A stretch of 64,000 bases of DNA, from IMG/VR virus record IMGVR_UViG_3300020046_010243, positions 1 through 64,000 of that record; one strand, 5' to 3'. Each line of letters begins with the position of its first letter. Position 1 is the first letter of the stretch. Position numbers and translations under genes: made by a program. The notes beneath the pieces are model-generated. The model did no database searches. It was not told where the DNA came from and saw only the letters and a list, made by a program, of their open reading frames with translations. This DNA comes from a virus. Lineage: Duplodnaviria > Caudoviricetes. Positions 10,152 to 64,000 of the stretch are shown here, piece after piece.

Positions 10152-10205
10152 CGCTTGCGGAATGCAAGCGCACAAGCGCTCAGCGAAACCGCCGCTGAGC
10201 GCTTG
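10152..10205 (-). promoter_or_regulatory. double-hairpin leader element
   Basis: CGCTTGC-GGAAT-GCAAGCG plus a 13-bp second stem. Confidence 0.85.
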
Positions 10206-10220
10206 AACACTGCACTTCGA

Positions 10221-11201: not shown

Positions 11202-11215
11202 GATCGCTTTCCTTT

Positions 11216-45568: not shown

Positions 45569-45999
45569 TAAGCAACTCCCCTGAACCGATACGCTCGCAA
45601 AACCTTCGCTCCGGCGACAGCGATGCCATTCTCGGCCACGAACCCCACTGACTGGTAGGCATGAATGACGTAGCCGGGCTTGCTTATCATCGCAAAGTGC
45701 TGCGGGAAGCGACGAAACGCCATCACCAGCACATCGCTCTCGCGCGCGAGCGAGAGATCTATGCGGTCCATGAACCGCTCGCAGGAAGCATAGAGAAACT
45801 CCGGGCGCGGAAGGCGACCATACGAATGCATCGCAGGATCTGCGCGCCATTCGGCGGCTCCCGGTAGCCCTAGCGCCAATGCGCTCATCCCGAGCAATCC
45901 CAAGCAGTCGACGCCGAGCCCCTTTACTCGAGCCTGATGCACCCAAGGCGTCCACATCCAGGTGCGAGCTTCCTCGATCAGGAGAGACCGGCTAGTCAT
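45568..45999 (-). CDS. NlpC/P60 peptidase (tail-associated)
   Basis: ARTW..TPWVHQAR.KG.GVDC.G, PQHFA, IHA. Confidence 0.9.
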   Translation of the reverse strand: MTSRSLLIEEARTWMWTPWVHQARVKGLGVDCLGLLGMSALALGLPGAAEWRADPAMHSYGRLPRPEFLYASCERFMDRIDLSLARESDVLVMAFRRFPQHFAMISKPGYVIHAYQSVGFVAENGIAVAGAKVLRAYRFRGVA

Positions 46000-46855
46000 T
46001 GTGCCTGCCGATCTGCACCAGCGCATCGTTGCCGCGCAACCAAGGTTCCCCATTGAAGCGTCGACCGTTGCCGAATGTCTCGACGCAATCCTCGATGAAG
46101 CGGCCGCGGCAGCCGCGCATGATCGAGTAGGAGTCGCCGGTCACATCATACGGGACCGGGCTGAGAAGTTCAAGCTCCCCTACGGTATAGGTCTTGACCT
46201 CAAAGGAGAGGTTGACTGCATCGCCGCTGGTGAAAGTGATGGTGCCCCGGTCGAAGGTGCCTGCATCTTCGGTTCGATCATTCACCGTCAGGACGAAGCG
46301 ATTCGTGCTGACCCCATCGACTACTCCGGTGAAAGTATATACCGGCGACCCGGCACCCAAGACGACTCCGCACTTCTCATCACCGAGCACATTGCGGCAC
46401 CCCGCCTGGGTGGGTTCGCCGATACTGGTGCTGTAGGCGTCCATCATGCCGATGAGTTCGGCGATGAACATCTGCCTGCCCGTGCGCACTTCACCGAGCC
46501 TGCCCGCGCGTAGCTTGTTCTTCCCGGCAGCCGGGTTCGCCCAACTCACCATGAACATTCGGAACTGCGCATAGTCCCACCGCCCCGCGCGCAGATCATC
46601 GGCGGTCAGGCCTGCCTGCGAGAGCAGCGCGTCGACCTGCACGTCATCGGGACCCATATCGCCGCCGGTAGCAACGTCAGTCGGGGTGAAGCTCGACCCG
46701 GGTCGATACTCGAGCCCATCGACTGTCAGCATCTTGCGGTTGGTCGTGAAGCCATAGACGTTGCCGTCGCGGCGTTCGATGCGGATGCAGGTCGCGAGTC
46801 GCGCCGACGAACGCGACATTTCGGTTTGCAAAGCAAGCGGGATCACCTTGCTCAT
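45992..46855 (-). CDS. DUF2163/BR0599-like tail hub protein
   Basis: RRDG..YGFT, DLRAGRWD.A, C...LGD..C, GC......C...FGN..RF.GEP. Confidence 0.9.
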   Translation of the reverse strand: MSKVIPLALQTEMSRSSARLATCIRIERRDGNVYGFTTNRKMLTVDGLEYRPGSSFTPTDVATGGDMGPDDVQVDALLSQAGLTADDLRAGRWDYAQFRMFMVSWANPAAGKNKLRAGRLGEVRTGRQMFIAELIGMMDAYSTSIGEPTQAGCRNVLGDEKCGVVLGAGSPVYTFTGVVDGVSTNRFVLTVNDRTEDAGTFDRGTITFTSGDAVNLSFEVKTYTVGELELLSPVPYDVTGDSYSIMRGCRGRFIEDCVETFGNGRRFNGEPWLRGNDALVQIGRHND

Positions 46856-47427
46856 ACTTCTTCTCCAGTCACTTCGATGATTTCGATGTCGCGCCAGCCG
46901 ACGATCAAGCCCTCGCGCCCTCGGTTGATGACCTGCGCTTTCATGGGGTCGTTGTTCAAGCGGCACCAGCAATCGAACTCGCCATACCAAGTCGTGCCGC
47001 TAGTCGCGATCCCGGTAGCATAGTCGAGCCCTACGGCGTTCGTGGTGATGGTCCCCTGCACCGGCTTGGTAATCACCCGATCGTAGGTGTAGGGGCCGTA
47101 GGTGTAGCGCTTGACCATTTGCTTGCCGACCGGGCTACCTTCGCTATCAATGAAGAAGCCTTCCCCGGAGTAGCACTCGAAGTCGACCCAGTCCTTGAAG
47201 CGGAAGGTATTCGCCATGCCTGCGACGTTGCGGAAGAAGGAGAGCAGAGGCTGCCAGTCGCCGTATGCGCGCGCCTCATGACTCACCGTCCATTCGCCGC
47301 GCTCGAGTTCCCACTCTTGCGTGCGCGACTCGGCTCCGCTCGCTACGGTTGCAATGCTGGTCTTGAATCGGGGTCCGCCGACCGCACCGAAACTGACCTT
47401 CTCGGGGAACCGGATATCCAGATCCAT
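46852..47427 (-). CDS. DUF2460-like distal tail protein
   Basis: RFP...S.GA.GGP.F.T.I...SG.E.R, FRFKDW.D. Confidence 0.9.
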   Translation of the reverse strand: MDLDIRFPEKVSFGAVGGPRFKTSIATVASGAESRTQEWELERGEWTVSHEARAYGDWQPLLSFFRNVAGMANTFRFKDWVDFECYSGEGFFIDSEGSPVGKQMVKRYTYGPYTYDRVITKPVQGTITTNAVGLDYATGIATSGTTWYGEFDCWCRLNNDPMKAQVINRGREGLIVGWRDIEIIEVTGEEV

Positions 47428-51857: not shown

Positions 51858-52208
51858 CTACCCCTCGTTCGTCCCTGACTTGCAGCGAAGCTCCAGCATG
51901 CCGCGCGAGAGTCCCGGTTCGATCGGACCCACGATATTGTAGATGACCGGCGGCCGCCCATCCGCTTGGTGCACGATGCGCGACTTCGCACTCAGCGCGG
52001 CGAGCGCAGGTGCCCAGCGGACAGTGATCTTCGTATCGACCTCAGAGAGCAACCCGCCGCCGATCTGCGACTCGCGGGCGCTCTGCGGCAGGATCTCAGC
52101 ATAGACGGTTGCGAAAGTCTGCCAGGAAGTCTCGGGTGCGCCGGTGCTCGACTGCGCATCGGTCGCGGTCTGGATCAAGACGCGATGAGAGAGGCGCGCG
52201 ATTCTCAT
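51858..52208 (-). CDS. head closure / head-tail adaptor
   Basis: RLSHRV.IQ, G.P...W..FATVYAEI.P. Confidence 0.9.
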   Translation of the reverse strand: MRIARLSHRVLIQTATDAQSSTGAPETSWQTFATVYAEILPQSARESQIGGGLLSEVDTKITVRWAPALAALSAKSRIVHQADGRPPVIYNIVGPIEPGLSRGMLELRCKSGTNEG

Positions 52209-52930
52209 GCGATCGGCATCCGGATGCGGTAACGCTCGACCAGCGCCTGGATCCCCAGGGGCAGACGACTCACCATGTTGCCCACATTGATCTCCTCCCG
52301 GTTCTCATAGAGAGCACCGAGCGTCAACTTCATCGCGGCGATCAGTGAGTATGGGATGATGTTGTCGAGCGGAGAAGCGCCCGGTGCATCGTAGCCGACG
52401 CTCATGCGGATGCGGATCGACCCTGGCTGGTCGCGCGAAGAGGGCCAGTCACTCGAACCATATGCAGGATAGAGCACGGGCACCTCGCAGGCATTGTCGA
52501 GGTAGAAGGCGCTCGGATCCATCACCGCATCATTCCCGTCGCTGTCTTTATAGGTCACGGAAATGATGCCATTGACCGGCGCGGTCATCAGCGAGATCCC
52601 GAAGTCGGGCATCCATCGCGACATGCCCGAGAAGCAGCGCCCCGAAAGCTCGACCGTCTGCGGAGCGAGCGCGAGTCCGCTCACGAACTCGATATATTCG
52701 CGCGAGGCAGGGATGAGCGCCTCGATCAGTTCCTGGTCGAGGTAGGTCGCAGGGCTGCCGTATGCATCGATGCGCAAGTGCTGCGCGGCTTGGTCGAGAG
52801 TGATCGGCTCGATGCTCGGCGGAGTGATGACTCGAAGCGACTTGCGGTCGCGCAGGTCGCGCTGCCATCCCGCGATGCAGGTGATGTAGCTGTTGGCGAG
52901 ACTGCGCCCATAGTTCAGGTAGCTGGTCAT
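52205..52930 (-). CDS. head-tail connector (gp6-like) with N-terminal extension
   Basis: EPITL.QA..HLRID, D..LI..LI.A.R, LY.NRE. Confidence 0.9.
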   Translation of the reverse strand: MTSYLNYGRSLANSYITCIAGWQRDLRDRKSLRVITPPSIEPITLDQAAQHLRIDAYGSPATYLDQELIEALIPASREYIEFVSGLALAPQTVELSGRCFSGMSRWMPDFGISLMTAPVNGIISVTYKDSDGNDAVMDPSAFYLDNACEVPVLYPAYGSSDWPSSRDQPGSIRIRMSVGYDAPGASPLDNIIPYSLIAAMKLTLGALYENREEINVGNMVSRLPLGIQALVERYRIRMPIA

Positions 52931-53613
52931 CCGAGGCACTCCTTCTTCGCTTGCTCCCAGATGTAAGCATGTTCGCATCCGGGTTTGAGTTCGGGGGTGC
53001 CCAGCGTGTAGTGGGCGATGATCGGTCGTTCGGGCTTGGGCTGCATTCCGACGAGCCAGTTATACTCGCCGGGAAGCGCACCGATCTCATTGTCGGCCAG
53101 CCAGCGAAACGCATGCAGATCGCGACCGGGCCATTGGTTGAGCATCTGGAGATTCAAGCGACGATTGGCGGGATGGTCGCAGTTGAAGAGCATCACCGAC
53201 GACCAAAGCTTGCGATGGTAGTTAGTCTGGATCTGGTTGTCCATCTTGAAGCCGCCGACTTGCCCGACCTCATGCTTCACCACGCAGACCGCATAGTCAT
53301 CGCGCGCATACCGAAGCATGCTGCGCGGATCCTCAAGAAAGATCACGTCCCCGTCGACGAAGAGCGCCCACCCGCTATGCGCGAGCAGGAGCGTTGCAAA
53401 GCGGGCGATGGCGAAGCGAGTCGACTGCGGAGCTTCGCTGTTGAGATCGAAAGCCTGCCCGCCTCGCGTATCCATCGGGCGGTAAATGATGCCCGATGCG
53501 CGCAGTCGGTCTTCGTAAAGACCGTGCACCTCGCAACCGAAGCGCAGCGCAGACGCGACCGCGAGGTTGAATGAGACCGCCTCGCGCTCCTCGTAACCGA
53601 CAAAGACTCTCAT
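52927..53613 (-). CDS. GT-A glycosyltransferase (GT8-like)
   Basis: VFVGY..RE, ST.F..ARF, FVDGD, VVKH, RKLWSSVMLFN, WL, YNWLVG, HYTLGTP. Confidence 0.85.
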   Translation of the reverse strand: MRVFVGYEEREAVSFNLAVASALRFGCEVHGLYEDRLRASGIIYRPMDTRGGQAFDLNSEAPQSTRFAIARFATLLLAHSGWALFVDGDVIFLEDPRSMLRYARDDYAVCVVKHEVGQVGGFKMDNQIQTNYHRKLWSSVMLFNCDHPANRRLNLQMLNQWPGRDLHAFRWLADNEIGALPGEYNWLVGMQPKPERPIIAHYTLGTPELKPGCEHAYIWEQAKKECLG

Positions 53614-53624
53614 GCCTGCTTACC

Positions 53625-54290
53625 TCACCCCGGGACCATGACAAAGTCGCCTGACATCTTCTCGACGCATTCGTAGCCGAGCGACTGCAACCACTCGACT
53701 GCGCCCAACTCAGGTAAACCGAACTGCTGTGCGCGCCCTGGCTTTTGTTCGACGATGATAGTGGGCAAGTCTCGCGCTATTGTAGCCTCTCCTCCGCGCA
53801 ATGCAAAGTATTCGTAGCCTTCGCAGTCGAGTTTGATGAAGTCGACAGACTGCAGATTGAAGGTGTCGAGACGGCAGAGCGGGATATCGCCCTCGCCCCC
53901 TACTTTCGAGTCCCCTGACGAGGATGGGGCTGTCTCAATACGCACGCTGCCCTCGTGGTCGCCGAGCGCGCAGGCATGCAAGACCGCGCGCGAATAGCCG
54001 AGGTTGACCAGATCCGGTTCGATGACATTCTGCTGAAAGCAGTCGCGGTGCGCTGCGACAGGCTCGAATGCATGCACAGTCTTGAACTGCTTGACCAACT
54101 GCATCGACCAGAGACCGATATGACCCCCGACATCGACAGCAGTGCGAAAGTCGCGACAGTGCCGCAAGGCGGCACGGAGTTTCTTGATCTGGTAGGTCCC
54201 CTTGCCGTCGACCCATTCTCCCGACTTATTCATCCAGTCGAGCAGGTGCACTTCGCTGTCCGGAAACCAGATCCCCTGGTGCTGCTTCAT
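53625..54290 (-). CDS. FkbM-family SAM methyltransferase
   Basis: DVGGHIGLWS, AFEP, ALGD, DFIKLDCEGYE. Confidence 0.9.
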   Translation of the reverse strand: MKQHQGIWFPDSEVHLLDWMNKSGEWVDGKGTYQIKKLRAALRHCRDFRTAVDVGGHIGLWSMQLVKQFKTVHAFEPVAAHRDCFQQNVIEPDLVNLGYSRAVLHACALGDHEGSVRIETAPSSSGDSKVGGEGDIPLCRLDTFNLQSVDFIKLDCEGYEYFALRGGEATIARDLPTIIVEQKPGRAQQFGLPELGAVEWLQSLGYECVEKMSGDFVMVPG

Positions 54291-55021
54291 GAAAAGACCT
54301 CCTGGTGAAGTGCTGCGTGAACTTCGTCAACGGTGATGGCGAGCATGGCGGCCTTACACCCTGCGCACGCCTGCCGGTTGCCGCACCATCCGGTAGCATG
54401 CCGAATGTTGCGCTGGTTCTGGTAGCCGGTGAACTCGGGCGAGATAAACTCGGACCAAAGCACGACCGAAGGAATCGAAAGCGCAGCCGCAGCATGGTGC
54501 AATGCGCCTTCGCCGCCGACGAACCCGATGCTAGAGGTCAGGATTGCAAGAGCTTCCCGGAAGGCGGTCTCCTTGAACTCGACACCGCGCAGTCGCTTCG
54601 ACTCAAGCGAACCGACCTGAATATAGCGACCTGGGTCTCGGTCGACCAACTGCTGCCATCGCTCGAACGGCCATGCTTTGTTGCCCCCGACGACCTTGGT
54701 ATTCGGTTCGATCAAGACCTTGCCCGCGAAGGGCGCAGCCTTCGCAAGCTCGTCCCGGTGCAGGTAGAGACTACCCGGTTCGATGTTCCAGTGCCTCCAG
54801 ACCCACCGCTCGGCGGTCTTGCCCGAGATATATGGGCGCACCCCCGAGGCGTTGAGCAAGGTAGCAGCGCCTCGCGTCTCGCGGGTGATGATCGGGTTGT
54901 ACTCGAAGACCGGTGACCATTGCGCGCGCCCGCGCAGATCCATCACCACGACTTGCTTCCCGGTAGCCTGGTGAAGTTGACGCACCTGCGCGGTCGCCAT
55001 AATCCAGTCACCGAGACCCAT
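54287..55021 (-). CDS. GT9-like (heptosyltransferase-type) GT-B glycosyltransferase
   Basis: MGLGDWIMAT, KAWPFERW, FVGGEGALHHAAAAL..PSVVLW. Confidence 0.75.
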   Translation of the reverse strand: MGLGDWIMATAQVRQLHQATGKQVVVMDLRGRAQWSPVFEYNPIITRETRGAATLLNASGVRPYISGKTAERWVWRHWNIEPGSLYLHRDELAKAAPFAGKVLIEPNTKVVGGNKAWPFERWQQLVDRDPGRYIQVGSLESKRLRGVEFKETAFREALAILTSSIGFVGGEGALHHAAAALSIPSVVLWSEFISPEFTGYQNQRNIRHATGWCGNRQACAGCKAAMLAITVDEVHAALHQEVFS

Positions 55022-55616
55022 TCGCACCTCCTTTGCGCCGGTAGTACCAGACCACCTCGTCGAAGGGTCCGAGTTCCTTGCGCTCGACCACGAAACCCGC
55101 CTCCTCCATGACCGCCCCGATATCGAAGGGACGGTTGTTGGTTCGAGCATCGACGATGACATCGCGCCCGCTAGGCGAAAGCCGCATGACGCAGAGATCA
55201 TCGCAGATCGAAGCGAAGTGACTCGCGGCGAAGATAGGATCCTGGAGCTTGTGCAAGAGAGCGAGGAGCAGCACGATATCGTAATGCTCTTGCGGGCGAT
55301 ACTGATCCGCATCCGCCTGGATGAAAGTGCAGTCAGAAAAGCCTCGCTCAGCGGCGAGGCGATTCCCGATCTTGATGTGCCCCGGCACGATCTCAGCGCC
55401 GAGGACCTTGCGCGCGCCCAACCGCGCAGCCTCGAGCGAGATCAGTCCTTCTGCGCAACCGATGTCGAGGATGCTCTTGCCTTTCACCTCAGCGAAGAGA
55501 GGCTCCAGCCCGCGCAGTTGTTGTTCGAGCGTTCGATCCCCGGGTCGCTCAGGAAGATCGAACCAGCCTCGGGTTCGCATCCGCTCAGCCTTGCGCTCGC
55601 GCGCGCGATTAGCCAC
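55008..55616 (-). CDS. class I SAM-dependent methyltransferase
   Basis: KSILDIGCAEG, YDIVLLLALLHK; GTG start with GGAG RBS. Confidence 0.85.
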   Translation of the reverse strand: MANRARERKAERMRTRGWFDLPERPGDRTLEQQLRGLEPLFAEVKGKSILDIGCAEGLISLEAARLGARKVLGAEIVPGHIKIGNRLAAERGFSDCTFIQADADQYRPQEHYDIVLLLALLHKLQDPIFAASHFASICDDLCVMRLSPSGRDVIVDARTNNRPFDIGAVMEEAGFVVERKELGPFDEVVWYYRRKGGANGSR

Positions 55617-56394
55617 GTTGCTCTCCTTGCCGCGACAATGCATCCCATGCGATGCCGCGCCGCATTTCATCAAGAGTCCATTGGTTATCTGCGAGCACGC
55701 CTGCCCAGTTGCGGATGTATGCGGGCCCGCAGAAAATTGGAGTCTCCATTCGCTCCAGCGCAAGGTTTGCTACGGGAGCAGCAGCGCATTGCTTGCTCAC
55801 GAATGCGGGAACTCCGGAGAGCACTGCGGTAATCGCAGCCGCCGAGGACCAGGTGACCAGCGCATGTGCGCCTTCCAGATCCTCTCCGAGGGTGCTCGCA
55901 AGTTTCGCTTTGTCTCCGGACCAAAGCCGCAACCGCACCGACCGCTTGCTGATACCGCCGAGCGCCTTCATAGTATCCGACGCCCAGTTCCCCTGGTAGC
56001 CGACAATCGTCTCCATGAATGAATCCGACTGCGGGCAGACGACGATGTGACTGCCTCGATTGCGAAGCGGTCGATTGTCGATCCCGAGATCATCGAAACG
56101 CTGCTTGTTCGAGACGCCGAAGCCGGTATGCTGGAGTCGGTTCTTCGTGATGCGGAAGTACTGCTGCCGCGCATCGTCGAAGTAGCTATTGTCGCAGTAG
56201 TAGAAGTCTTGCTGCGCATTCGCTCGAACTGCCTTCCAGAGGTGCGCATTGCTCGCATCGACGCCGTAGAAGAAGGCGGGGCCGGGCTGCAGTTGCTCGG
56301 CGTCGACCAGGATCTGAGCACCGCAGCCTGCGGCGAAAGCCTTGCAGATGTCGAGCGACTTTTGCTTTCCGCTTACGGGGTAGCAGTAGATCAC
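55609..56394 (-). CDS. KpsC/KpsS-like (capsule synthesis) GT-B protein, paralog 2
   Basis: VRLR, AHALVTWSSAAAITAVLSGVP, NQWTLDEM..G. Confidence 0.55.
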   Translation of the reverse strand: MIYCYPVSGKQKSLDICKAFAAGCGAQILVDAEQLQPGPAFFYGVDASNAHLWKAVRANAQQDFYYCDNSYFDDARQQYFRITKNRLQHTGFGVSNKQRFDDLGIDNRPLRNRGSHIVVCPQSDSFMETIVGYQGNWASDTMKALGGISKRSVRLRLWSGDKAKLASTLGEDLEGAHALVTWSSAAAITAVLSGVPAFVSKQCAAAPVANLALERMETPIFCGPAYIRNWAGVLADNQWTLDEMRRGIAWDALSRQGEQRG

Positions 56395-57179
56395 TTTGCA
56401 CCTCCCGCGCGCGCGATCTCGAGGAAGCGCATGAACGGCTCACCCTTGTCGAGTTCAGCGATGCTCCATTGCGCCCACGCCATTTGCCGCATCGCATGGA
56501 GACGCTTCTCGTCGTCGTAAAGCAGCGGCGCGTCGAGCCGGGAGGCTGCGTTCGCGCAGATCCAGAAGGGCGCATCGAACCGAACCGGGATGCCGAGAGT
56601 CAGTGCCTTGACCCCCGAGGATGACGACCAGATCACGCAGTCGCGCGCGCCCGCGAGATCAGTCTCCAATGGGATCGCGGGCATATGGTTCCCGGGATGC
56701 AGTCGCAGTTGCGTGGGGTTGCCTTGCTTCTGAAGTCGAGTCTGAGCAAGCTTGTGCCAATCGGGCGGGGATGCCATGTGCGGCGTCCCGATGCCGCGCT
56801 GCCCGCAAATCAGCGAGTAGCCTTCGCGCTTCACCCAGGGTTGGAGTTCGATGTTCAGCGCGGCGAAGCGCTCGGGGCCGCCTCCAGGCCAGATCCCGCT
56901 ACCGTTATGGCCGTGAATCGATAGCGCATAGAGTTGGTGCCCGGCGGCATCCTTGCCGAGGTAGCCGTTCTCGGCGACGATGACTGTACCCCCATTCTTC
57001 TCCCAGGCGTCTGCCATCGACCCGCTCGACCCGTACCGGTTCCAGATGATGAGGAAGTCTTCGGGATCGGCCGCCATGCCCTTTTCGATGAGCCGGAACC
57101 CCGCTGCGCGCAGACCGCCGATGAAAGCTTCGCGGCGGTAGTGCGGTTCTGCTCGGATCATGCACAATGCGTTTTTCAT
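56391..57179 (-). CDS. KpsC/KpsS-like GT-B protein, paralog 1
   Basis: AENGYL, RLHPG, VIWSSSSGVKALTLGIP, AQWSIAEL..G. Confidence 0.55.
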   Translation of the reverse strand: MKNALCMIRAEPHYRREAFIGGLRAAGFRLIEKGMAADPEDFLIIWNRYGSSGSMADAWEKNGGTVIVAENGYLGKDAAGHQLYALSIHGHNGSGIWPGGGPERFAALNIELQPWVKREGYSLICGQRGIGTPHMASPPDWHKLAQTRLQKQGNPTQLRLHPGNHMPAIPLETDLAGARDCVIWSSSSGVKALTLGIPVRFDAPFWICANAASRLDAPLLYDDEKRLHAMRQMAWAQWSIAELDKGEPFMRFLEIARAGGAK

Positions 57180-58000
57180 TTGGCCAACTCCTCAGCCAGA
57201 TCGCCGCGAGGGAAGGAGTTGAGCGCCGAGTCGGGAGAGCAGTTGACCACCTCGACCCCTTCGGCTTTGAGGTCGGCAGCGAAGACTGCGAAGTTCTCCT
57301 TCCAGGCGCGATGGGGCAGCGAGTTGCTGAGCGGCGAGGGATGGTCCGGATGCCAATGCTTCCCTTTGAGATCGACTCCGATCAGGAGCATCCGGCGCGT
57401 GCCCGCAAGATACGCGAGGTTCATCGCTTGCACCGAGCTATTCGCTCCCTGTGCGATGTAGGACGGATCCTTGCTCAGGTTCGAGGTGCGCCGACTGGCG
57501 ATGTAGTTGAGCGAGAACTGCTTTGCTGCGAGTTCGTCTTGCGTCCAGAGCGCAGCGGGCGGGAAGATTTCGCACGCCTCGGCATAGTAGGTCTTCTTTG
57601 TCTCGGGATCCTCGGCGCGCCACCATGCACCATCGCAGGCGTAGAGAATATCCGCGAAGGGCGCGAGCCGAAAGCTCGTGTTGATAACTATGACCCGCGC
57701 ATCGCCTCGGGTCTCGCGCCAGTAGCGTACGGTCTCGCATTGAGTCTCGGAAAGACTCGGACCGCTCGCAACAACCACTACGGTGCAGCCATGCCAAGGC
57801 GGGAAGCGCTGCTCGGGAACCTGCGCGACCGCAGGCGCAGGCACTGGAGGAGGCGCGGTCTTGCTTGCGGGGATGAACTGCTCCGCATAGCCCGACGCGA
57901 TCCAATCCAGCGCCTTCTCGCGGTTTTCTTCGATGAACTGATCTCCCCGACGAATCGGATTGACCGATGTCGGAAGATCCTTTAGTGCACGCAACAGCAT
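57176..58000 (-). CDS. Maf/DUF115/GT42-like Rossmann protein (nonulosonate-transferase-like)
   Basis: VVASGPSL, VINTSF, YACD..WW, GANS.VQAMNLAY.AG..R.LLIGVD. Confidence 0.6.
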   Translation of the reverse strand: MLLRALKDLPTSVNPIRRGDQFIEENREKALDWIASGYAEQFIPASKTAPPPVPAPAVAQVPEQRFPPWHGCTVVVVASGPSLSETQCETVRYWRETRGDARVIVINTSFRLAPFADILYACDGAWWRAEDPETKKTYYAEACEIFPPAALWTQDELAAKQFSLNYIASRRTSNLSKDPSYIAQGANSSVQAMNLAYLAGTRRMLLIGVDLKGKHWHPDHPSPLSNSLPHRAWKENFAVFAADLKAEGVEVVNCSPDSALNSFPRGDLAEELAK

Positions 58001-58031: not shown

Positions 58032-59678
58032 TCACTTCAGTCGGACCTGCGTCGCTTCCTTTCCTTTGACCGCTACTTCGCGGTCCTTGCCTGGACGCCC
58101 GCGCTGCGCTGCGAGTTTCCATGAGTCGCTTGTCCCCGGTACTTCGTTCGTCGAGCGCTTCGCAATCCACCACGAACCATCCCACGCTACCGAATCGCCT
58201 CGAGCATAAAGCTTTCCTTGCTCGTATGCATCCCGACTGATGACCATCGGGAGCACGACTTCCTGTACGTTGGTTTCCTCGACCTCTCCGTTGCTGTTCA
58301 GGCTCATGCGCAGCGTGCGGTCATCGGGAAGGAGTTCGAGCTTGAAGTCCTTGACCGAGAGACCATCCTTGCCCGCGGGCGGCGGAGGCATCGACTTCAG
58401 ATAGTGGGTGACGGCGAGATCGACCATGAGCTTTATGGCGTCGAGGTCGGGAGCCTTCTCCTTCGGCAATGCGAGGATCGCTTGCGCAACCTCGCCCCTC
58501 ACCATCGAACGCACTTGCTCGGCATCGACCGAGACGCCATCCTTGCCGGGGATAGGATCGGGCACGACGATTTCGATTTGCTTCACGGCGTCCTCGACCA
58601 TCGAAGCGATGACCGCGGGGTCAGCATCCTTGCCGTTTGCGGGCACCGGGATCAATGCAACCGCCGCATCGACTTGCTCCATGACTTTCTTGAAGACCAG
58701 CGCATAGTCGATCTCGGGCGGGGGCGCTTGCGGGGGCGCGCTCGCGCTCGCTCGCGCGAGAGCAGCCTCGACGATATGATCGAGTTGCTCCATCGATGGG
58801 GCTCGTTTCTCTGCGGCTGCGTCGATGAGCGGCGCGATCTCCTCGAGAGTCACCGACTTCCCATCGGCGGGCTTCGGAATCTGCGCAACCGCGAGCGATA
58901 GCGCGCCATGCAGTTCGGGCAGCGCAGTTTCTGCGAGTTGCTTGCGCACCTCTGCGCCGATCGCCGGAGCGACATCCTCGAGCGTCACCGAGGTCCCCGG
59001 CTTGCCCTCGGGGACTACGATGTTTTTGATTTGCGCATCGACTACTTCGACTACGAAGCGGTGCACCGCGGCGAGGTCGACCGGGTCGGCATCCTTTCCG
59101 TTCGCGGGCTTCGGGATCGCAGCGACTTCGGCTTGCACCGCCGCGAGGATCATCGGCTGCACATCTCCGATCAGCACTGATGCACCATCCTTCGGAATCG
59201 GGATCTGCGCGACGAGTGCCTCGAGCGAAGCCGAGAGCGACTGCGAAAGCTCCTCCTTCATCTTCGCAGCGAGCGAAGGCAGCGCAGCGAGCGCAGCCTC
59301 GATAGCGAGCGCGGGATCCGCATCCTTGCCTGGTGCTCCCGGCGGTGCAGGAGGCAATGCGCGCACCTGCTCAGCGATGGTCTCCTTCACCGAGAGCAGA
59401 AGCGCATCCTTGTCGATGCTCTCGCCCGGATCGCCCTTGGGCCCCGGATCGCCAGGGTCACCCTTGGGCGGGGCAGGGATCGCAGCGAGAGCGGCGCTGA
59501 CCGCCTTCTCGACGATGAGCGCCAACCCTTCCAGCGATTGCGCATGTCGCTGCGCCATCGCCGCTTCGGCTTTCTGGAAGAGGTCAAGCAAATCTGCCTC
59601 TCGTTTCGCGCAGTAAGTCTTGACCGAATCGAAGACTCGCGCCGCGAGCAGATCCAAATTATTGTCAGACATTTTCAT
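58032..59678 (-). CDS. head-associated repeat protein (P..GKD repeats, short collagen-like stretch)
   Basis: ~9 IPxPxxGK(D/S) units separated by helices; C-terminal Y..GD.V.WDGS.W. Confidence 0.8.
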   Translation of the reverse strand: MKMSDNNLDLLAARVFDSVKTYCAKREADLLDLFQKAEAAMAQRHAQSLEGLALIVEKAVSAALAAIPAPPKGDPGDPGPKGDPGESIDKDALLLSVKETIAEQVRALPPAPPGAPGKDADPALAIEAALAALPSLAAKMKEELSQSLSASLEALVAQIPIPKDGASVLIGDVQPMILAAVQAEVAAIPKPANGKDADPVDLAAVHRFVVEVVDAQIKNIVVPEGKPGTSVTLEDVAPAIGAEVRKQLAETALPELHGALSLAVAQIPKPADGKSVTLEEIAPLIDAAAEKRAPSMEQLDHIVEAALARASASAPPQAPPPEIDYALVFKKVMEQVDAAVALIPVPANGKDADPAVIASMVEDAVKQIEIVVPDPIPGKDGVSVDAEQVRSMVRGEVAQAILALPKEKAPDLDAIKLMVDLAVTHYLKSMPPPPAGKDGLSVKDFKLELLPDDRTLRMSLNSNGEVEETNVQEVVLPMVISRDAYEQGKLYARGDSVAWDGSWWIAKRSTNEVPGTSDSWKLAAQRGRPGKDREVAVKGKEATQVRLK

Positions 59679-59687: not shown

Positions 59688-60170
59688 TCAGTCAAGCAAC
59701 CCAGAGTGCAGTGCTGAAATGAGCAGGGCGATTATATCCTGATCGTCTCGGAGAATGCGCGCGCGGTTAGAAGGCGGGTAGTAAAAATGATATCCCCCAC
59801 CAGGCATCGGAGTGATGATCGGAGGTTCCGGCGGTTCGATAGGCGCACCGATACCCATGCCGAATCGAACGAAAAGCGAAGCCGACTGCACCGTCCCAAG
59901 CGTGATGTAGCTGCCGCTTTGCGTGGCCGCAGAAGGCGCAAGGCCGAGCATTGCGGCCTTGCTTGCGCTCTGTCCATAACCAAAGGTGATATAGCTGCCG
60001 CCTTGAGCTGTCGCGGAAGGCACAAGGCCGAGCATTGCGGCCTTGCTTGCGCTCTGCCCATAGCCAAAGGTGATATAGCTTCCGCCCTCCCCCGGGTCAT
60101 CGACAAAAGCATGCCACCACGGGTTTGCGAACTCCGCGCTGTCGAACCAAGGTTGTTGAAACCAAACCAC
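59688..60170 (-). CDS. virion-associated protein with internal 28-aa repeat
   Basis: GGSYITFGYGQSASKAAMLGL x2 plus a degenerate third copy. Confidence 0.7.
   Translation of the reverse strand: MVWFQQPWFDSAEFANPWWHAFVDDPGEGGSYITFGYGQSASKAAMLGLVPSATAQGGSYITFGYGQSASKAAMLGLAPSAATQSGSYITLGTVQSASLFVRFGMGIGAPIEPPEPPIITPMPGGGYHFYYPPSNRARILRDDQDIIALLISALHSGLLD
59941..60086. repeat. 84-bp-period direct repeat inside 59688..60170
   Basis: AGGCCGAGCATTGCGGCCTTGCTTGCGCTCTG... at 59941 and 60025. Confidence 0.9.
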
Positions 60171-60174
60171 ACCA

Positions 60175-61032
60175 TTAGCTCCCGTCCAGAACCGTGCCGC
60201 TTCGCTCGCCTTCGGCAGTCGCAGTTCCGGCTATGCGATCGGTGCTGCCGTCGACACTCTTGAACGTGATTGCATATGTCCCGTTACCATTATCTACTAC
60301 TTCGCAGTTCCCCGCGATGCCCGCGAGAATGACTCGAAGTACTTCGCTCGCAGTCATGCCTGACTCGATGAGAGCATCCCAAGGGTTCGCCCCCGCCCCT
60401 AGATCGTTCAACTTCTCGCCCATAGACCCGGCTGCATTGTTCGCAGAAGCAACCGCAGACCAGACTGACTGACCAACGTTTGCGGTGCTGAGTCCGGTCC
60501 CGGTCACGACGATATCAATCGCCATGTCGCCGAAAGCAGCAATGGTGGCGTCGAGATCCCCCGCACCAAGCAGGTTGACCACCATGTTGCCGAGTCCCGA
60601 CAAGCTCGCTTCCAGGTCGCCCGCCCCGGTGAAGTCGACGCTTGCATTCAAGCGACCTTGAATCGTTGCGGTCAGCGCGCCCGAACCGCCCAGCGCGCAG
60701 AGCATCGACACTACTAGCGCGGCGGTCGCATCGAAGTCACTTGCTCCGGTGAGGTCTATGCTCATCGGATACGTCGCGATCAAGCTCCCGGCTATGCTGC
60801 CGATACCATCGGTCCGCATCGACATTTCACTCGCGAGGATCGGCGGCTGGTAGGAGTTCTGGAGATAATGACCCGGAGGATTCGCGACGGTCTGTAGAAC
60901 TTCGGATGCGCCGTCCGGGTAGATGTATTTCTCGAACTGGTAGTAGCTATCCCACTGCCCGGGCAGCAGTGCCTGCGCGCTCCCCTCGAACATCCCCGAG
61001 AAGCCGATCCGCAAGAAGTTCGAGAGAAGCAT
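60175..61032 (-). CDS. Gly/Ala/Ser/Thr-rich putative virion fiber or decoration protein
   Basis: beta-helix-like repeats (L.GAG.L.A); late-operon position. Confidence 0.7.
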   Translation of the reverse strand: MLLSNFLRIGFSGMFEGSAQALLPGQWDSYYQFEKYIYPDGASEVLQTVANPPGHYLQNSYQPPILASEMSMRTDGIGSIAGSLIATYPMSIDLTGASDFDATAALVVSMLCALGGSGALTATIQGRLNASVDFTGAGDLEASLSGLGNMVVNLLGAGDLDATIAAFGDMAIDIVVTGTGLSTANVGQSVWSAVASANNAAGSMGEKLNDLGAGANPWDALIESGMTASEVLRVILAGIAGNCEVVDNGNGTYAITFKSVDGSTDRIAGTATAEGERSGTVLDGS

Positions 61033-62219
61033 TACGACGTCCAGCCGAAATTCAGGTGCGCTTCGATGAGCGAGTTCGCCGGAGTCGCAACGCCTGACTT
61101 GCCGATCATGTAGAGGGCGGCACCATCGTAGACCCGCACGCCGCCATCGAAGCGCCAGGGGACGCTCTGTCCGAGGACTTGCAGCGGCACCGGCTCGCCG
61201 AGTCGTTTGAAGAGCGCGACGGAGTACATGCCCGAGGTGTAGGTCGCGCTGTTGCGGATGGTCTGGATAGAGCGGATGCCGCTATCGGCTCCTTGCAGGG
61301 GAATCGCGGGGCCGAACTTCCCCGCGCCGGTCGCGCCGGTATAGAGAATGTGCGAGGCAGTCGCAGCGGTCTTCCCGATCGGCGCGCTAGGCGACGTCGG
61401 GGTGGCGCGGCTTGCGGTCCCGGCGCCGTTCTGGTAGCCGAGAGTCAGTTGCGGCGTACCCGCACCAAGGGCGGTTGCCGAAGGATTGAAGAACATCGCG
61501 TCGACGCCGACCCCATCCGAGTAGCGCGGCAGCCGAACATCGATGACATTGGTTCCGGTCCCGGCATCGGTATAGGCAATCGCCGTCCCCGCGATGGCAT
61601 TCGTGCGGCTGGTAGCGAAGCGACTCGTGGTCGCCGATACCCGGATCGTATAGTAGTCGACGCCCGCGGTAAGCCCGGTAGGCAGCGCGCCTCCTGAATT
61701 GCGGAACCTCACCTTCGAGAGGCTTTGGACGTCGTTGGTGTAAGTTCCGAGCAGACCCGACGATGACGAGAAGGTAGTAGTCTCTCCGCCGCCTATCCCC
61801 GATCCCGTATCGTAGGGCCAGATGACGGTCTGCGCGGTCGTGGTGGTGACTGAAGTCACCCGGATGAAACCGAGCAGGTCGATCAGTTGCACCCAGAAGG
61901 GAACCACGGTTGCCGCCGCGGTGTTCACCATCGCGGTCTCGAGGATCTTGTAGTCGTCGCCATCGGCTCCGACATCGCCTCCGTGATAGAGGCTACCTGC
62001 GCTCGCAGTCTGGTCACTCACCGACTGGAAGAGGAGGTTGGTGCCCGCATCGAAGATCGCATCGGCCGAGGGGTAGCCGCCGCCCCGGAAGAGAGTATGC
62101 CATTCATTCGCAACGGCGGCGGCGGTCGGGTTGAACTGCTTGGACATGACGGTTTGGAAGCGCTTGCCGAGCGCCGACATCGAGTTCAGGCGATTGTCGA
62201 GTCCGGTGAATCCACCCAT
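61032..62219 (-). CDS. putative virion structural protein, paralog A (with inserted beta domain)
   Basis: LPRYSDGVGV, Y.NGAG.A.R, GPAIPL..DSGIRS. Confidence 0.8.
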   Translation of the reverse strand: MGGFTGLDNRLNSMSALGKRFQTVMSKQFNPTAAAVANEWHTLFRGGGYPSADAIFDAGTNLLFQSVSDQTASAGSLYHGGDVGADGDDYKILETAMVNTAAATVVPFWVQLIDLLGFIRVTSVTTTTAQTVIWPYDTGSGIGGGETTTFSSSSGLLGTYTNDVQSLSKVRFRNSGGALPTGLTAGVDYYTIRVSATTSRFATSRTNAIAGTAIAYTDAGTGTNVIDVRLPRYSDGVGVDAMFFNPSATALGAGTPQLTLGYQNGAGTASRATPTSPSAPIGKTAATASHILYTGATGAGKFGPAIPLQGADSGIRSIQTIRNSATYTSGMYSVALFKRLGEPVPLQVLGQSVPWRFDGGVRVYDGAALYMIGKSGVATPANSLIEAHLNFGWTS

Positions 62220-62220
62220 G

Positions 62221-63078
62221 TTATTTCCTCACCCATAAGGTTCGAAGTTGACCTTCAATGATGGCGCCCGACAGGGAGCCGTTCGGCTTACAAATCATCG
62301 ACAGATATGCATCGTCTTCGATCTGCTCAAACATTCCAAGATGCTGCCAGAAGGACCAGCCCGATGGGTTAGTGTTTTCGTAGCCCGCAAAAGGCGCGAG
62401 AGGCTTGACGAGCACTACTGCGAGGTTCCCGGCGTCGGCAGAGAAAAACTCGATGCTCTCGACGCTGCGCACCCCACCATCGCCTTGCGCTAGCGGCACG
62501 AAGGGACCGGGACAGCCTGCTTTAGTAGGCGCGGAAGTCGCAACCGTACCGAGGAGCGCCTGGGTATTGATGGTCATGATCGGGGACTGCCTGCCTGCTA
62601 CGCCCGCAGAGTTCGTATACGTAACGCGGCAGGTACCGCCGCCCACATATGGGAACTGCTCGACCAGCATGATCTGCACACCTTCGCCGCTCGAGTAGCG
62701 GGGCAGCGTGACTGCATTCGTCATCGACTGCACATCCTCCATCGGGATCAGAGGATAGTACATCAGGTAGTCGGCGATGATGAGCGAAAGAGGCATCGCA
62801 GTGGCGGTGACCGATAGCACGCATGCGTAGTCGAGAAACTTGCGGTAGTCGGAGCCCTTGTCTTCGCCATGATCCAGCCCGCCGTCGACGCTCCGGCGCA
62901 GCGCTCGCGCGGTATTCGGAGACCCATCAGTGAAGTAATTCGCGGCAGGGTAGCGACCCGACATCGTGAGGTCGACGAAGATGCCTGCTCCGGTTGCGAT
63001 GGATGGAACCTTGACCCAGGGGCGGGCGAGGACTCGTCCTTCATCCGGAGCCGAAAACAATTTCGCATGCGTCAGCAC
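62221..63078 (-). CDS. putative virion structural protein, paralog B
   Basis: LPRYSSGEGV, Y.NSAG.AGR, GPFVPL..DGGVRS. Confidence 0.8.
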   Translation of the reverse strand: MLTHAKLFSAPDEGRVLARPWVKVPSIATGAGIFVDLTMSGRYPAANYFTDGSPNTARALRRSVDGGLDHGEDKGSDYRKFLDYACVLSVTATAMPLSLIIADYLMYYPLIPMEDVQSMTNAVTLPRYSSGEGVQIMLVEQFPYVGGGTCRVTYTNSAGVAGRQSPIMTINTQALLGTVATSAPTKAGCPGPFVPLAQGDGGVRSVESIEFFSADAGNLAVVLVKPLAPFAGYENTNPSGWSFWQHLGMFEQIEDDAYLSMICKPNGSLSGAIIEGQLRTLWVRK

Positions 63079-63332
63079 TAGATGCTCCGGCCAGTCAGCG
63101 CAGAGAGAAACTGCCGCAGCGTCAGCCGCAACCTACGCTCCGCGCGAACCGCTACATTAACATCGCCCTGTCCGCGCAGAGTCACTTTCCGATTCGCCCA
63201 GATGATCGCATCCGTATGGTCGCAAGAGAACTTCTTACGTGGTTCGCCGCCATCCGGCGCAAGAGTGACATCGACAGCAGCGCCGCAAACGGAGCATTCG
63301 TAGAGCGGAGGGAAGCGGTCGCGCAACGACAT
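63078..63332 (-). CDS. small Cys/His protein
   Basis: CSVC...CDH; coupled overlaps. Confidence 0.7.
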   Translation of the reverse strand: MSLRDRFPPLYECSVCGAAVDVTLAPDGGEPRKKFSCDHTDAIIWANRKVTLRGQGDVNVAVRAERRLRLTLRQFLSALTGRSI

Positions 63333-63334
63333 GC

Positions 63335-63769
63335 TCAGGTCTCCGTGATCGTGACCGATCCGATCGGGAAGCGCGGCTGGATCTGATTCGAGACTGCGAT
63401 GGAGGCATTCAAGTCACCGTAATGGAAAATCTGCGCCGATCCTCCCCCGGGCTTACCCGTCGCGGCAGCGACGATGGTGTTGCCCGTGACCCCGCACTGC
63501 GGGAACTCGATGGCCGCCGCGTTCGCGGTTGCGCCCCCAGAGGGAGCCGACCAGCCCCCGGTCGTCCGCGCAGTGCTCTGGCGCGCGTAGTTCGTGTAGG
63601 TCGATTCGTTGCTGGCGAGAGTCGATGAGGCGCTATAGCTCGCGGTCGCCAGCGCAACTTCGACTGCGGTGATCGGGCTGGTCGCATCATTGTCGGCGAT
63701 GTCCGCGATAGCCGAGGCATTGTAGTACAGCCCGAGAACTGCATTGCACATTGCGGTAGACTTCGGCAT
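63335..63769 (-). CDS. phage minor structural (head or tail fiber) protein
   Basis: E..Y..YARQ...W..P....AN..AIEFP motif. Confidence 0.75.
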   Translation of the reverse strand: MPKSTAMCNAVLGLYYNASAIADIADNDATSPITAVEVALATASYSASSTLASNESTYTNYARQSTARTTGGWSAPSGGATANAAAIEFPQCGVTGNTIVAAATGKPGGGSAQIFHYGDLNASIAVSNQIQPRFPIGSVTITET

Positions 63770-63792
63770 TTCAGAACTCCCCTAAGTTTTGA

Positions 63793-63987
63793 TTATGTAG
63801 CTCTGGTTTGAGTGGTCGGCGTTGTCGCGCTATCAAGCGTGAACGTCATGGCGGTCGTGCTTCCATCCAACTTCTTTGCGGTGAGAGTAGTGCTGGCGAT
63901 GCTGCGTTCTGCGAGCAACGACCAGATCATATGCAGTGCTTGCGCAGGAGTCATCGCGCTGCCATCCGCCGCATAGCTTTCGGTCAT
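63793..63987 (-). CDS. 3' end of a structural-region protein (true start may lie outside the window)
   Basis: Thr-rich C-terminus; near the window edge. Confidence 0.55.
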   Translation of the reverse strand: MTESYAADGSAMTPAQALHMIWSLLAERSIASTTLTAKKLDGSTTAMTFTLDSATTPTTQTRAT

Positions 63988-64000
63988 CGCAGTCGTCCAG

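Follow-up and report, generated by a model that had tools for sequence, protein, structure and literature searches.

The 64,000-nucleotide window comes from a 77-kb uncultured phage. Between the head-fibre and neck genes it has a compact run of seven genes (gA to gG) for sugar transferases and methyltransferases, whose products, expressed late, probably assemble a glycan in the cytoplasm and attach it to the virion proteins of the phage itself. The cassette comprises five glycosyltransferase-fold proteins and two methyltransferases, encoding seven soluble enzymes as one translationally coupled block in the late operon, among the head and neck genes. The genomic setting favours virion glycosylation, and gene position, gene fusions and a motif bias together suggest a virion-protein acceptor.

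Organization of the cassette

The preliminary description had placed a seven-gene cassette within the structural operon, and this was confirmed with an exact span of 52927-58000, which is filled by seven co-directional genes on the minus strand (Table 1). The near-universal overlap of start and stop codons described earlier was likewise borne out, at 5/6 internal junctions and also at the gG-adaptor junction, where the adaptor ATG shares bases with the stop codon of gG. For gD and gE the longest-ORF starts were rejected, as they would give an overlap of ~300 nt; this overlap disappears with starts at 55616 (GTG) for gD and 55021 (ATG) for gE, each of which has a ribosome-binding site, and homolog alignments begin at residue 4 (gD) and residue 1 (gE) of the shorter versions. 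Within the cassette, no promoter-like sites were found beyond the level of shuffles, and no terminator-like site was judged convincing. A transmembrane-like segment is present in 0/7 of the cassette proteins.

Table 1. Genes of the cassette and its immediate neighbours, listed in the direction of transcription
Feature	Position	Strand	Length	Remarks	Junction with next gene
Repeat/fibre protein (upstream neighbour)	58032-59678	-	548 aa	phrog_1289 and phrog_2271 match repeats and C-terminus	
gA	57176-58000	-	274 aa		ATGA
gB	56391-57179	-	262 aa		GTGA
gC	55609-56394	-	261 aa	GTG start	8-nt overlap
gD	55008-55616	-	202 aa		14-nt overlap
gE	54287-55021	-	244 aa		ATGA
gF	53625-54290	-	221 aa		11-nt spacer
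gG	52927-53613	-	228 aa		ATGA
Head-tail adaptor (downstream neighbour)	52205-52930	-		phrog_442 at 4e-18, phrog_40 at 8e-14	

The repeat/fibre protein forms the upstream boundary of the cassette, and its C-terminal domain also lies directly before gA in loci L003, L015, L016 and L018 (tblastn) and in phage PAJU2 (gp07). Downstream, the cassette is followed by genes for the head-tail adaptor, head closure protein, Neck1, tail terminator and major tail protein. The host appears to be Gram-negative, and the GTA-like tail module points to an alphaproteobacterium.

Predicted enzymes

The gA protein consists of a lineage-specific N-terminal region of ~70 aa, a Pro-rich linker and an MptE/Maf/GT42-like core at residues ~70-274. 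It matches phrog_4603 at 2e-36 and PF01973 at 2e-5, the latter below threshold, and PF01973 is matched by 17/17 aligned gA homologs. The best PDB matches of the family profile are CstII GT42 sialyltransferases, at an E-value (0.02) that is not significant, with an alignment spanning the G-x-G-P-S loop and the G.D motif, and the structural neighbours in the Atlas are MptE-like and WaaZ_KDO_III clusters. Common to gA, Maf, CstII and WaaZ is a small Rossmann-like core that carries a G.D motif and, at its N-terminal end, a G-x-G-P-S loop. The last three are enzymes that use CMP-activated 8- or 9-carbon acidic sugars as donors; Maf acts in the cytoplasm, where its targets are Ser/Thr residues of a structural protein that self-assembles. 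Unlike Maf, gA has a core of ~200 aa, a sub-threshold Pfam match and PDB matches short of significance, and it lacks the substrate-binding domains that flank the Maf core. The earlier assignment of gA as Maf/GT42-like stands at the level of the family, but a nonulosonic acid as first sugar is not a given, since Maf is no closer to the core than the sialyltransferase-like and WaaZ-like proteins are.

The gB and gC proteins, previously described as KpsC/KpsS-like paralogs, are indeed distant paralogs (BLASTP, 24% identity, E 6e-8), and the proposed likeness was upheld in fold only. Foldseek matches of the gB AlphaFold2 model (pLDDT 96.5) at E <= 0.001 were KpsC, WbbB or KrkA in 28/28 cases, and the model superposes on KpsC/WbbB with VIA Z 11.4-11.9 over 216-230 residues, against <= 8.3 for other or generic GT-B structures; judged by this model, gB is a beta-Kdo-transferase-fold (KpsC/WbbB-like, modified GT-B) protein. 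The PF05159/Capsule_synth HMM is matched by neither protein. Following the motif definitions in PMC12887879 and PMC10148158, gB keeps the CMP motifs (the Glu base, the Gln of QXXXD, RxHP and SS) and carries Gly at the position of the nucleophile Asp, a pattern that recurs across ~30 orthologs, and the full QXXXD is retained in the gB-like proteins of loci L008 and L010. The active-site motifs of gC are degenerate, with neither QXXXD nor HP. In the characterised retaining beta-Kdo glycosyltransferases with which the two proteins were compared, KpsC/KpsS (GT107), WbbB (GT99) and KrkA (GT140), the Asp nucleophile is absolutely conserved and His-Pro is essential, whereas gB lacks the former and gC lacks both; gB and gC are furthermore short (~260 aa), without a membrane anchor, phage-encoded and located within a structural operon. 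Because of these missing residues, Kdo transfer by the known mechanism cannot be assumed. As far as the sequences indicate, gB and/or gC may be inactive or have another activity, and gC is possibly non-catalytic or an acceptor-binding partner of gA.

For the remaining four genes, the families named in the preliminary description were all recovered. The gD protein is a class I SAM-dependent methyltransferase (Methyltransf_25, PF13649, at 1.7e-11; PF13847 at 3e-11), and gF is an FkbM methyltransferase (PF05050 at 8e-15, 55.8 bits for a cut-off of 22.7; TIGR01444 at 4.6e-19; phrog_8156 at 3e-26). The short (244 aa) gE protein is GT9-like, matching PF01075 at 1e-4 with 22.2 bits vs a 22-bit cut-off; its matches to heptosyltransferase NCBIfam models (~1e-3) fall well under their cut-offs, and its feature and structure neighbours in the Atlas are viral clusters in which 74-98% of members carry PF01075 (GT9). 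The AlphaFold2 model of gG (pLDDT 90.4) has a GT-A/GT8-like fold, with WbbM, LgtC, LARGE1, GlyE, 3tzt, XXYLT1 and glycogenin as top Foldseek matches and PBCV-1 A64R also listed, and D87-x-D89 (DxD) and H201 are invariant columns; gG has >2154 homologs. No non-glycosyltransferase fold emerged from the structure check of the proposed transferases, and 7/7 enzyme assignments were upheld by HMM, profile and fold comparisons.

Related loci in other phages

A survey of related phages, cultured ones included, showed that the structural-operon location of the cassette is conserved in many of them. In diverse phages, gA lies after the capsid gene and before the head-tail adaptor, with 0 to ~9 variable sugar-chemistry genes behind it; the PHROG-checked order in loci L013, L021 and L008 is capsid, small protein, gA, optional extras and adaptor, and in phage D3 it is orf6 (capsid), orf6.5, orf7 (gA) and orf9 (adaptor). 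In PAJU2, gA, gp11 and a methyltransferase gene are flanked by the genes for head closure protein and tail terminator, and Caulobacter phage CcrSC (phiCbK-like) has gA, gB, gC, gG, a methyltransferase and gE, set between the tail and lysis genes. Only gA, whose family contains 3905 cluster representatives, was found in every related locus; some phages have it as the sole such gene, immediately before the adaptor gene, and D3, PAJU2 and P1 have gA homologs alone. The earlier idea of a Maf-like initiator gained support from this distribution, and gA is proposed as the priming enzyme.

Gene fusions and exchanges also involve the cassette. In-frame gA-gC fusions are present in L009 (ORF 9977-11395) and P0295, and in P0257 gA is fused with GT2, methyltransferase and PIG-L deacetylase domains. 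In the closest relative no gD homolog was detected at the gD position, where a DegT aminotransferase (1e-80), a sugar C-methyltransferase and extra methyltransferase genes are found.

Proposed glycan assembly and candidate acceptors

In the proposed pathway, gA would place the first CMP-activated acidic sugar (Kdo or nonulosonic acid) on Ser/Thr of a virion protein, with the degenerate paralog gC, fused to gA in some phages, perhaps acting as its partner; gB, gE and gG would extend the chain, and gD and gF would methylate or cap the glycan. No CMP-sugar synthetase was found in this phage, so the sugar donors would derive from host pools, and the cassette families would correspond to users of the LPS-core precursors CMP-Kdo, ADP-heptose and UDP-hexose.

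The tripeptide Gly-Ser-Pro occurs 13 times in the late structural proteins, vs 0-5 times for the five remaining permutations of these residues (binomial 4e-6), and this bias is absent from the early and middle proteins. Enrichment is also seen in L002 and L012, two loci with an extended cassette, and gA-only loci show no such bias. Neither the protease-capsid fusion nor the fibre protein of 548 aa was found to contain the over-represented tripeptide; those neck and tail proteins that do contain it are candidate acceptors.

Among the closest known systems are those of mycobacteriophages (Che8, Corndog and Myrna), whose virion glycosylation was shown by Freeman et al. 2023, as cited in PMC12582341, and in Corndog a cassette of glycosyltransferase and O-methyltransferase genes lies within the structural operon (PMC4351075). 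Both there and here, glycosyltransferase and O-methyltransferase genes are inserted among virion structural genes; the mycobacteriophage enzymes are cytoplasmic, late-expressed and not identified in purified virions, and their product, proposed or shown, is a methylated glycan carried by capsid or tail proteins; the corresponding product here is a predicted one. The systems differ in their enzymes (two glycosyltransferases, a GlcNAc transferase and an O-methyltransferase, by annotation only, in Corndog; MptE/Maf-like, beta-Kdo-transferase-fold, GT9-like and GT8-like proteins here), in their slot (between portal and protease in Corndog, before the adaptor here) and in the host, which is Gram-negative only for the present phage. 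Chlorovirus PBCV-1 also glycosylates its own capsid protein with virus-encoded cytoplasmic glycosyltransferases (A64R, the gG fold match, and others), but it is a eukaryotic giant virus with atypical N-linked glycans that has only the GT-A fold in common with gG, without synteny or sequence relationship.

Alternative targets

An LPS acceptor would fit the chemistry equally well, since WaaZ-like, Kdo-transferase-fold, GT9 and GT8 families also build the LPS core. During infection the cassette might alter a glycoconjugate of the host envelope, such as the inner or outer core of LPS, a capsule linker, flagellin or pilin, and this could block adsorption of progeny or competing phages to infected cells and debris. 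We consider this unlikely, although the fold and family neighbours are LPS and capsule enzymes (KpsC/WbbB, GT9 heptosyltransferases, LgtC/WbbM-type GT8 and WaaZ-like clusters), every predicted donor is an LPS-core precursor, and 'lipopolysaccharide biosynthesis glycosyltransferase' is the JGI name of some gG homologs. Expression from a structural late operon would leave little time for surface LPS to be replaced before lysis, and the capsid-adaptor slot is conserved across lineages, whereas known seroconversion genes, such as those of D3, lie close to lysogeny modules; the known LPS-converting genes of D3 sit elsewhere in its genome. The mostly viral nature of the nearest Atlas clusters of gA and gE, the lack of membrane-anchoring segments and the unmatched Capsule_synth HMM for gB and gC likewise argue against an envelope target.

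It is quite improbable that the cassette targets neither virion nor envelope glycans, serving as non-catalytic assembly factors or in the synthesis of free or lipid-linked oligosaccharides or small molecules. The missing nucleophile of gB and the two missing catalytic motifs of gC are compatible with a non-catalytic variant in which gC, and perhaps gB, would be pseudo-enzymes and gA possibly an MptE-like kinase or pyrophosphokinase, PF01973 being named for pterin diphosphokinase (with the gA match below threshold). Nonetheless, gG keeps its invariant DxD and His, ~30 gB orthologs keep RxHP, SS, Glu and Gln with full QXXXD in two gB-like proteins, gD and gF both score above curated thresholds, genuine sugar-nucleotide enzymes are added in the closest relative, and gA is fused with sugar-chemistry domains in P0257. 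The P1 homologs, of which pmgO corresponds to gA and does not adjoin head or neck genes, are annotated as 'putative morphogenetic function', but pmgO, pmgP and pmgQ are dispensable for plaque formation (PMC10695390), contrary to a core assembly role and as expected for decoration.

Glycosylation of phage DNA as an anti-restriction hypermodification is very improbable: glycosylation of modified bases is known in phages, but the cassette is unlinked to DNA-metabolism or modification genes, lying among the morphogenesis genes in the other strand block, and enzymes of the CMP-ulosonic-acid and GT9/GT8 types are not known to glycosylate DNA.

Concluding remarks

Across many phage lineages gA is the constant element at this operon position, and the genes that follow it vary in the manner of a glycan-diversity island.

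Gene organization of the cassette and its place in the late operon

The viral record comprises 76,936 bp, is estimated to be 94% complete, and contains the window as its first 64 kb. Positions 52927-58000 are filled exactly by seven minus-strand genes, here called gA to gG in order of transcription. Taken as the longest ORFs, gD and gE overlapped their neighbors by hundreds of bases; the shorter versions adopted start at 55616 (gD) and 55021 (gE), each behind a good ribosome-binding site, and alignments with homologs from related loci begin at residue 4 of the short gD and residue 1 of the short gE. Overlaps occur at five of the six internal junctions (ATGA, GTGA, 8 nt, 14 nt and ATGA), in keeping with the preliminary description of a seven-gene cassette with nearly universal overlap of start and stop codons, and the gG stop codon overlaps the ATG of the head-tail adaptor gene. 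Promoter-like sites in the cassette showed no excess over shuffled sequence, no terminator-like site inside it was judged convincing, and no transmembrane-like segment was found in any of the seven proteins.

Genes of the late operon in operon order (coordinates along the viral genome)
Order	Feature	Coordinates	Strand	Length and remarks
1	Small and large terminase subunits
2	Protease-capsid fusion	72560-74563, beyond the window (L033:9561-11564)	-	667 aa
3	Portal
4	Fibre-like and unknown genes, ending with the 548-aa repeat protein	59688-64000 in the window and 64001-71070 (L033:794-8071)		about 13 kb, portal to adaptor
4	Repeat protein	58032-59678	-	548 aa
5	gA	57176-58000	-	274 aa
5	gB	56391-57179	-	262 aa
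5	gC	55609-56394	-	261 aa, GTG start
5	gD	55008-55616	-	202 aa
5	gE	54287-55021	-	244 aa
5	gF	53625-54290	-	221 aa
5	gG	52927-53613	-	228 aa
6	Head-tail adaptor	52205-52930	-
6	Head closure protein, Neck1, tail terminator, major tail protein
7	Probable tape measure protein			weak Pfam match
8	GTA-like hub and Rcc01698-like host-specificity protein
	Tail tip of gene-transfer-agent (GTA) type	42128-46990	-	Phage_phiJL001_Gp84_N, BR0599, Phage-tail_3, Rcc01698_C

This order bears out the location first proposed for the cassette, between head-accessory genes and the head-tail connector. Capsid and prohead protease form a single fusion protein, as annotated for gp03 of phage PAJU2; another capsid candidate (61032-62219) had no PHROG, Pfam or PDB match and was rejected in favor of this fusion. 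The head/neck accessory block between portal and adaptor is unusually large for a siphovirus-type genome; the majority of its genes lack a family match, several have fibre/collagen-like matches (Gp80 fibre I, tail-fibre PHROGs), and the product of one matches surface-repeat (Ig-like) models weakly, below threshold. The 548-aa protein at the end of this block consists of repeats of about 45 aa and, at residues ~434-536, a conserved C-terminal domain with a high content of Trp, Gly and Asp. This domain also immediately precedes gA in several unrelated phages, as it does in PAJU2 (gp07). Two PHROGs labelled as portal protein (phrog_1289 and phrog_2271) match this protein, probably because the C-terminal domain is fused to some portals, and the protein itself may be a head or neck fibre, with a possible role as acceptor or lectin. 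The GTA-like tail module points to a host among the Alphaproteobacteria.

Predicted functions of the cassette proteins

The MptE-like family (PF01973, DUF115) includes the Maf proteins, and gA is related to it remotely, not being a member by the curated threshold (24.9 bits; cut-off 34.6). All 17 aligned gA homologs match the same model, all of them sub-threshold, with a best E-value of 3.4e-7, and gA strongly matches phrog_4603. An MptE-like fold is predicted from the Atlas model (pLDDT 0.81), which superposes with TM-scores of 0.80-0.86 on clusters with PF01973 in 47-100% of their members; some of these MptE-like clusters also carry a model for the Kdo-transferase WaaZ. Searched against PDB, the gA family profile returned the CstII sialyltransferases of family GT42 as best matches (E 0.019-0.044), the alignment covering the nucleotide loop (G-x-G-P-S) and the G.D region, with the catalytic His not convincingly aligned, while the single gA sequence against PDB sequences gave noise only. 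The conserved core spans residues ~70-274, the N-terminal 70 residues and a Pro-rich linker being confined to close relatives, and the family comprises 3905 cluster representatives at 50% identity.

The next two proteins, gB and gC, are distant paralogs (24% identity, E 6e-8). Searches of family profiles against PDB sequences were non-decisive for both, yielding only non-significant KpsC matches (E about 0.3), and gave nothing for gG, so the folds were needed to decide. All 28 Foldseek matches of the gB model (pLDDT 96.5) at E <= 0.001 were to KpsC, WbbB or KrkA (E 2e-6 to 1e-4), and VIA-align Z-scores were 11.4-11.9 for KpsC/WbbB, 9.1 for KrkA and at most 8.3 for generic GT-B structures. The model thus assigns gB to the modified GT-B fold of the retaining beta-Kdo transferases (GT99/GT107/GT140), to which gC would be tied solely through its paralogy with gB. 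PF05159 (Capsule_synth) had no match anywhere in the phage genome at E <= 10, and about 1000 gB homologs contained no Pfam domain.

In the KpsC/KrkA enzymes, the Asp of the QXXXD motif is an absolutely conserved covalent nucleophile, (K/R)XHP binds CMP, Ser-Ser binds the phosphate and a Glu serves as general base (PMC10148158, PMC12887879). These motifs were mapped by strand order in the model and by the distance to HP (34 residues in gB, 38 in KpsC) rather than by residue-level superposition.

Active-site motifs of beta-Kdo transferases in the cassette proteins and their relatives
Protein	Glu base	Gln of QXXXD	Asp nucleophile	(K/R)XHP	Ser-Ser
gB (about 30 orthologs)	kept (E-N-G-Y)	kept	Gly (G-Q-R-G-I-G)	R-x-H-P kept	kept
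gC	Asp or other	kept in this phage and closest relatives	no QXXXD (P-Q-S-D-S-F)	HP lost (W-S)	kept
gB-like proteins of two other phages (L008, L010)	kept	kept	kept (Q-V-(L/P)-G-D)	kept	N-S-N, second Ser lost

Thus gB shares the fold, RxHP and Ser-Ser of the retaining beta-Kdo transferases but lacks their Asp nucleophile, a Gly occupying this position (Q+4), and the full QXXXD occurs only in the gB-like proteins of L008 and L010. Since R159-x-H161-P162 and W-S-S-S-S-G are conserved across all gB orthologs and Glu and Gln are kept, gB is probably an active CMP-sugar enzyme that has no access to the known double-displacement route. In gC, the Arg and Ser-Ser are retained, but W-S replaces H-P, so the (K/R)XHP feature is lost, and the protein may be non-catalytic.

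The remaining four genes would encode two methyltransferases and two further glycosyltransferases. Matches above the curated thresholds assign gD to the class I SAM-dependent methyltransferases (PF13649, 45 bits, cut-off 27; PF13847, 43.6 bits) and gF to the FkbM methyltransferases (PF05050, 55.8 bits, cut-off 22.7; TIGR01444, 69.3 bits, cut-off 37.7). The match of gE to PF01075 (GT9) reaches 22.2 bits (cut-off 22) and covers only model positions 171-230 of 247; its scores against the WaaC/WaaF NCBIfam models are far under their cut-offs, its Atlas neighbors are viral clusters with PF01075 in 74-98%, and gE, at 244 aa, falls about 100 aa short of canonical GT9 enzymes. The gG model (pLDDT 90.4) shows a GT-A fold, most like that of GT8 enzymes, with WbbM, LgtC, LARGE1, GlyE, 3tzt, XXYLT1 and glycogenin as top Foldseek matches (E 3e-7 to 1e-4); with D87-x-D89 and H201 invariant across 35 homologs, it is predicted to be a GT8-like enzyme with a DxD metal motif. 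No match of gG to Pfam, PF01501 (GT8) included, was found at E <= 0.01, none of its more than 2100 homologs carries a Pfam domain, and no NCBIfam model matched gA, gB, gC or gG. Across HMM, profile and fold evidence, every family likeness originally named for gA to gG holds, that of gA being remote and that of gE lying at the cut-off itself.

A constant gA and variable genes behind it

A gA homolog is encoded in 26 IMG/VR loci. Three of these (L013, L021 and L008) have the PHROG-checked order capsid, small protein, gA, optional extras and adaptor, an order shared by phage D3. The number of genes between gA and the adaptor varies from 0 to about nine: the adaptor directly abuts gA in L013, only a gB-like gene intervenes in L008, a further 200-aa ORF separates gA from the gB-like gene in L010, L012 holds gA, gB, gC, gE, gF and gG, and L003 holds gA to gF. 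The closest relative (L002, 57-77% identity) carries at the gD position (L002:6956-11428) a sugar C-methyltransferase (PF08421/PF08484), an aminotransferase (DegT/DnrJ/EryC1, 1e-80), a 231-aa gene without assignment and a further methyltransferase, so the phage may itself tailor an amino or branched sugar. A single-protein search with the adaptor for cassette-free relatives returned the same close relative only.

This is what a glycan-diversity island with a single constant enzyme as its anchor would look like. The constancy of gA, with variable genes following it, supports a role for gA as the step that acts on the non-sugar acceptor, and lends weight to the earlier proposal of the Maf-like enzyme as initiator. 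In locus L009 (9977-11395) and in the single protein P0295, gA and gC form one polypeptide of 472-503 aa, a Rosetta-stone link which suggests that the degenerate gC works physically with gA as a possible partner. Tandem gA-gA proteins were also found, and in protein P0257 gA is fused to GT2, methyltransferase and PIG-L deacetylase domains. A protein of ~275 aa with no assigned function (phrog_6804) follows gA in L007 (10564-11400) and L016 (9996-10952); proteins alike in size and position occur after gA in PAJU2 (gp11) and in the D3 neck module (orf12), each next to a methyltransferase.

Homologs in cultured phages

By tblastn, gA homologs occur in 74 deposited phage records. In D3, orf7 (gA) lies between the capsid gene and the adaptor, and a methyltransferase (orf13) is found further along the neck module; D3 orf12 was considered as a gB/gC relative and proved unrelated (hhalign probability 0.2% against the gB/gC profile). 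In PAJU2, the genes for the head closure protein and for the tail terminator flank gp10 (gA), gp11 and the methyltransferase gp12. The giant Caulobacter phage CcrSC holds gp516 (gA), gp515 (gB), gp514 (gC), gp513 (gG; hhalign E 6e-39), the methyltransferase gp512 and gp511 (gE) in a block between tail and lysis genes. Homologs of gB occur in 15 giant Caulobacter phage records, and the only DNA match of the cassette to cultured phages is an 80-bp stretch inside gB shared with them. Phage P1 (L030, NC_005856.1 79592-82150) has a gA homolog in pmgO and a second, weaker MptE-like copy in pmgP, both in one late operon with a Ser/Thr phosphatase gene (ppp) and pmgQ (a glycosyltransferase in RefSeq, unrelated to the gG profile); pmgO, pmgP and pmgQ are nonessential for plaque formation (PMC10695390).

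RefSeq labels among the carriers include 'alpha-2;3-sialyltransferase', 'methyltransferase' and 'glycosyltransferase', the rest being hypothetical or putative morphogenetic. Homologs of gA with 34% identity also occur in the 39-kb genomes HQ632857 / NC_020840 ('Tetraselmis viridis virus S20') and HQ632858 (SI1), algal virus records that may represent bacteriophages from algal culture. The literature searched on phage glycosylation and the carrier genes yielded no paper describing the gA-gG cassette.

Candidate acceptors and sugar donors

Acceptor motifs were sought by counting the tripeptide Gly-Ser-Pro, with the other five orderings of the same residues as a composition-matched control. The late structural proteins, cassette excluded, contain 13 Gly-Ser-Pro sites, against 0, 0, 1, 2 and 5 for the other orderings (binomial 4e-6), and early/middle proteins show no such bias (3 vs 0-6). 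Gly-Ser-Pro occurs in the adaptor, tail terminator, major tail protein and hub, in a few products of genes upstream of the cassette and, five times, in the 1275-aa host-specificity protein; none was found in the protease-capsid fusion or the 548-aa fibre protein. Enrichment recurs in L002 and L012, which have an extended cassette (5 and 6 sites), and is absent from gA-only loci. As an acceptor motif the bias is suggestive, the numbers being small. The phage encodes no CMP-sugar synthetase, so the donors would come from the host; judged by enzyme family, the donor set (CMP-activated acidic sugar, ADP-heptose and UDP-hexose) would match the LPS-core precursor pool.

Proposed pathway and its significance

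On balance, the cassette probably encodes a late cytoplasmic pathway by which neck and tail proteins of the phage itself receive a short glycan, methylated and probably acidic, with gA as the priming enzyme; head-fibre proteins are perhaps acceptors as well. The same chemistry would fit equally well with remodelling of host LPS or another envelope glycoconjugate, but expression late in infection, a conserved slot among structural genes and a distribution that is mostly viral all fit this alternative poorly, and we regard it as improbable. Non-catalytic or other roles of the cassette proteins are quite unlikely, and DNA glycosylation by the cassette is very unlikely indeed.

Virion glycosylation in itself is a concept already known from mycobacteriophages, where it affects immune recognition; to our knowledge, these are the only tailed phages for which it has been demonstrated experimentally. 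There, glycosyltransferase and methyltransferase genes lie within the structural operon, as they do here and in the relatives. The Corndog cassette offers a close organizational parallel (PMC4351075). Particular to the present cassette are the two beta-Kdo-transferase-fold proteins, whose active sites are altered, its GT9/GT8 extension, and a direct homology to genes of cultured phages through which the virion-glycosylation hypothesis can be tested by routine virion mass spectrometry.

A more far-reaching version, speculative and unlikely to hold in full, is a protein O-glycosylation system of Gram-negative phages in which an MptE-like enzyme attaches a Kdo-type acidic sugar to neck and tail proteins, at the Ser of their Gly-Ser-Pro loops, and nucleophile-less beta-Kdo-transferase-fold enzymes together with GT9- and GT8-like enzymes extend it into a methylated, LPS-core-like glycan derived wholly from host LPS precursors; its core enzyme would be common to P1 (pmgO/pmgP), D3 (orf7), PAJU2 and the phiCbK-like phages. 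If true, such a system would be undescribed, and the nucleophile-less enzymes would constitute a new mechanistic class.

Virion glycosylation by the cassette, the reading regarded above as probable, would assign a function to P1 genes long listed as 'putative morphogenetic', as well as to genes of D3, PAJU2 and phiCbK-like phages that lack an assignment. Through gB and gC it would extend the recently defined retaining Kdo-transferase fold to members without the catalytic Asp, and it would offer a tunable surface property for phage therapy and phage engineering. With about 3900 cluster representatives in the gA family alone, sugar-coated virions would then be widespread among phages of Gram-negative bacteria.
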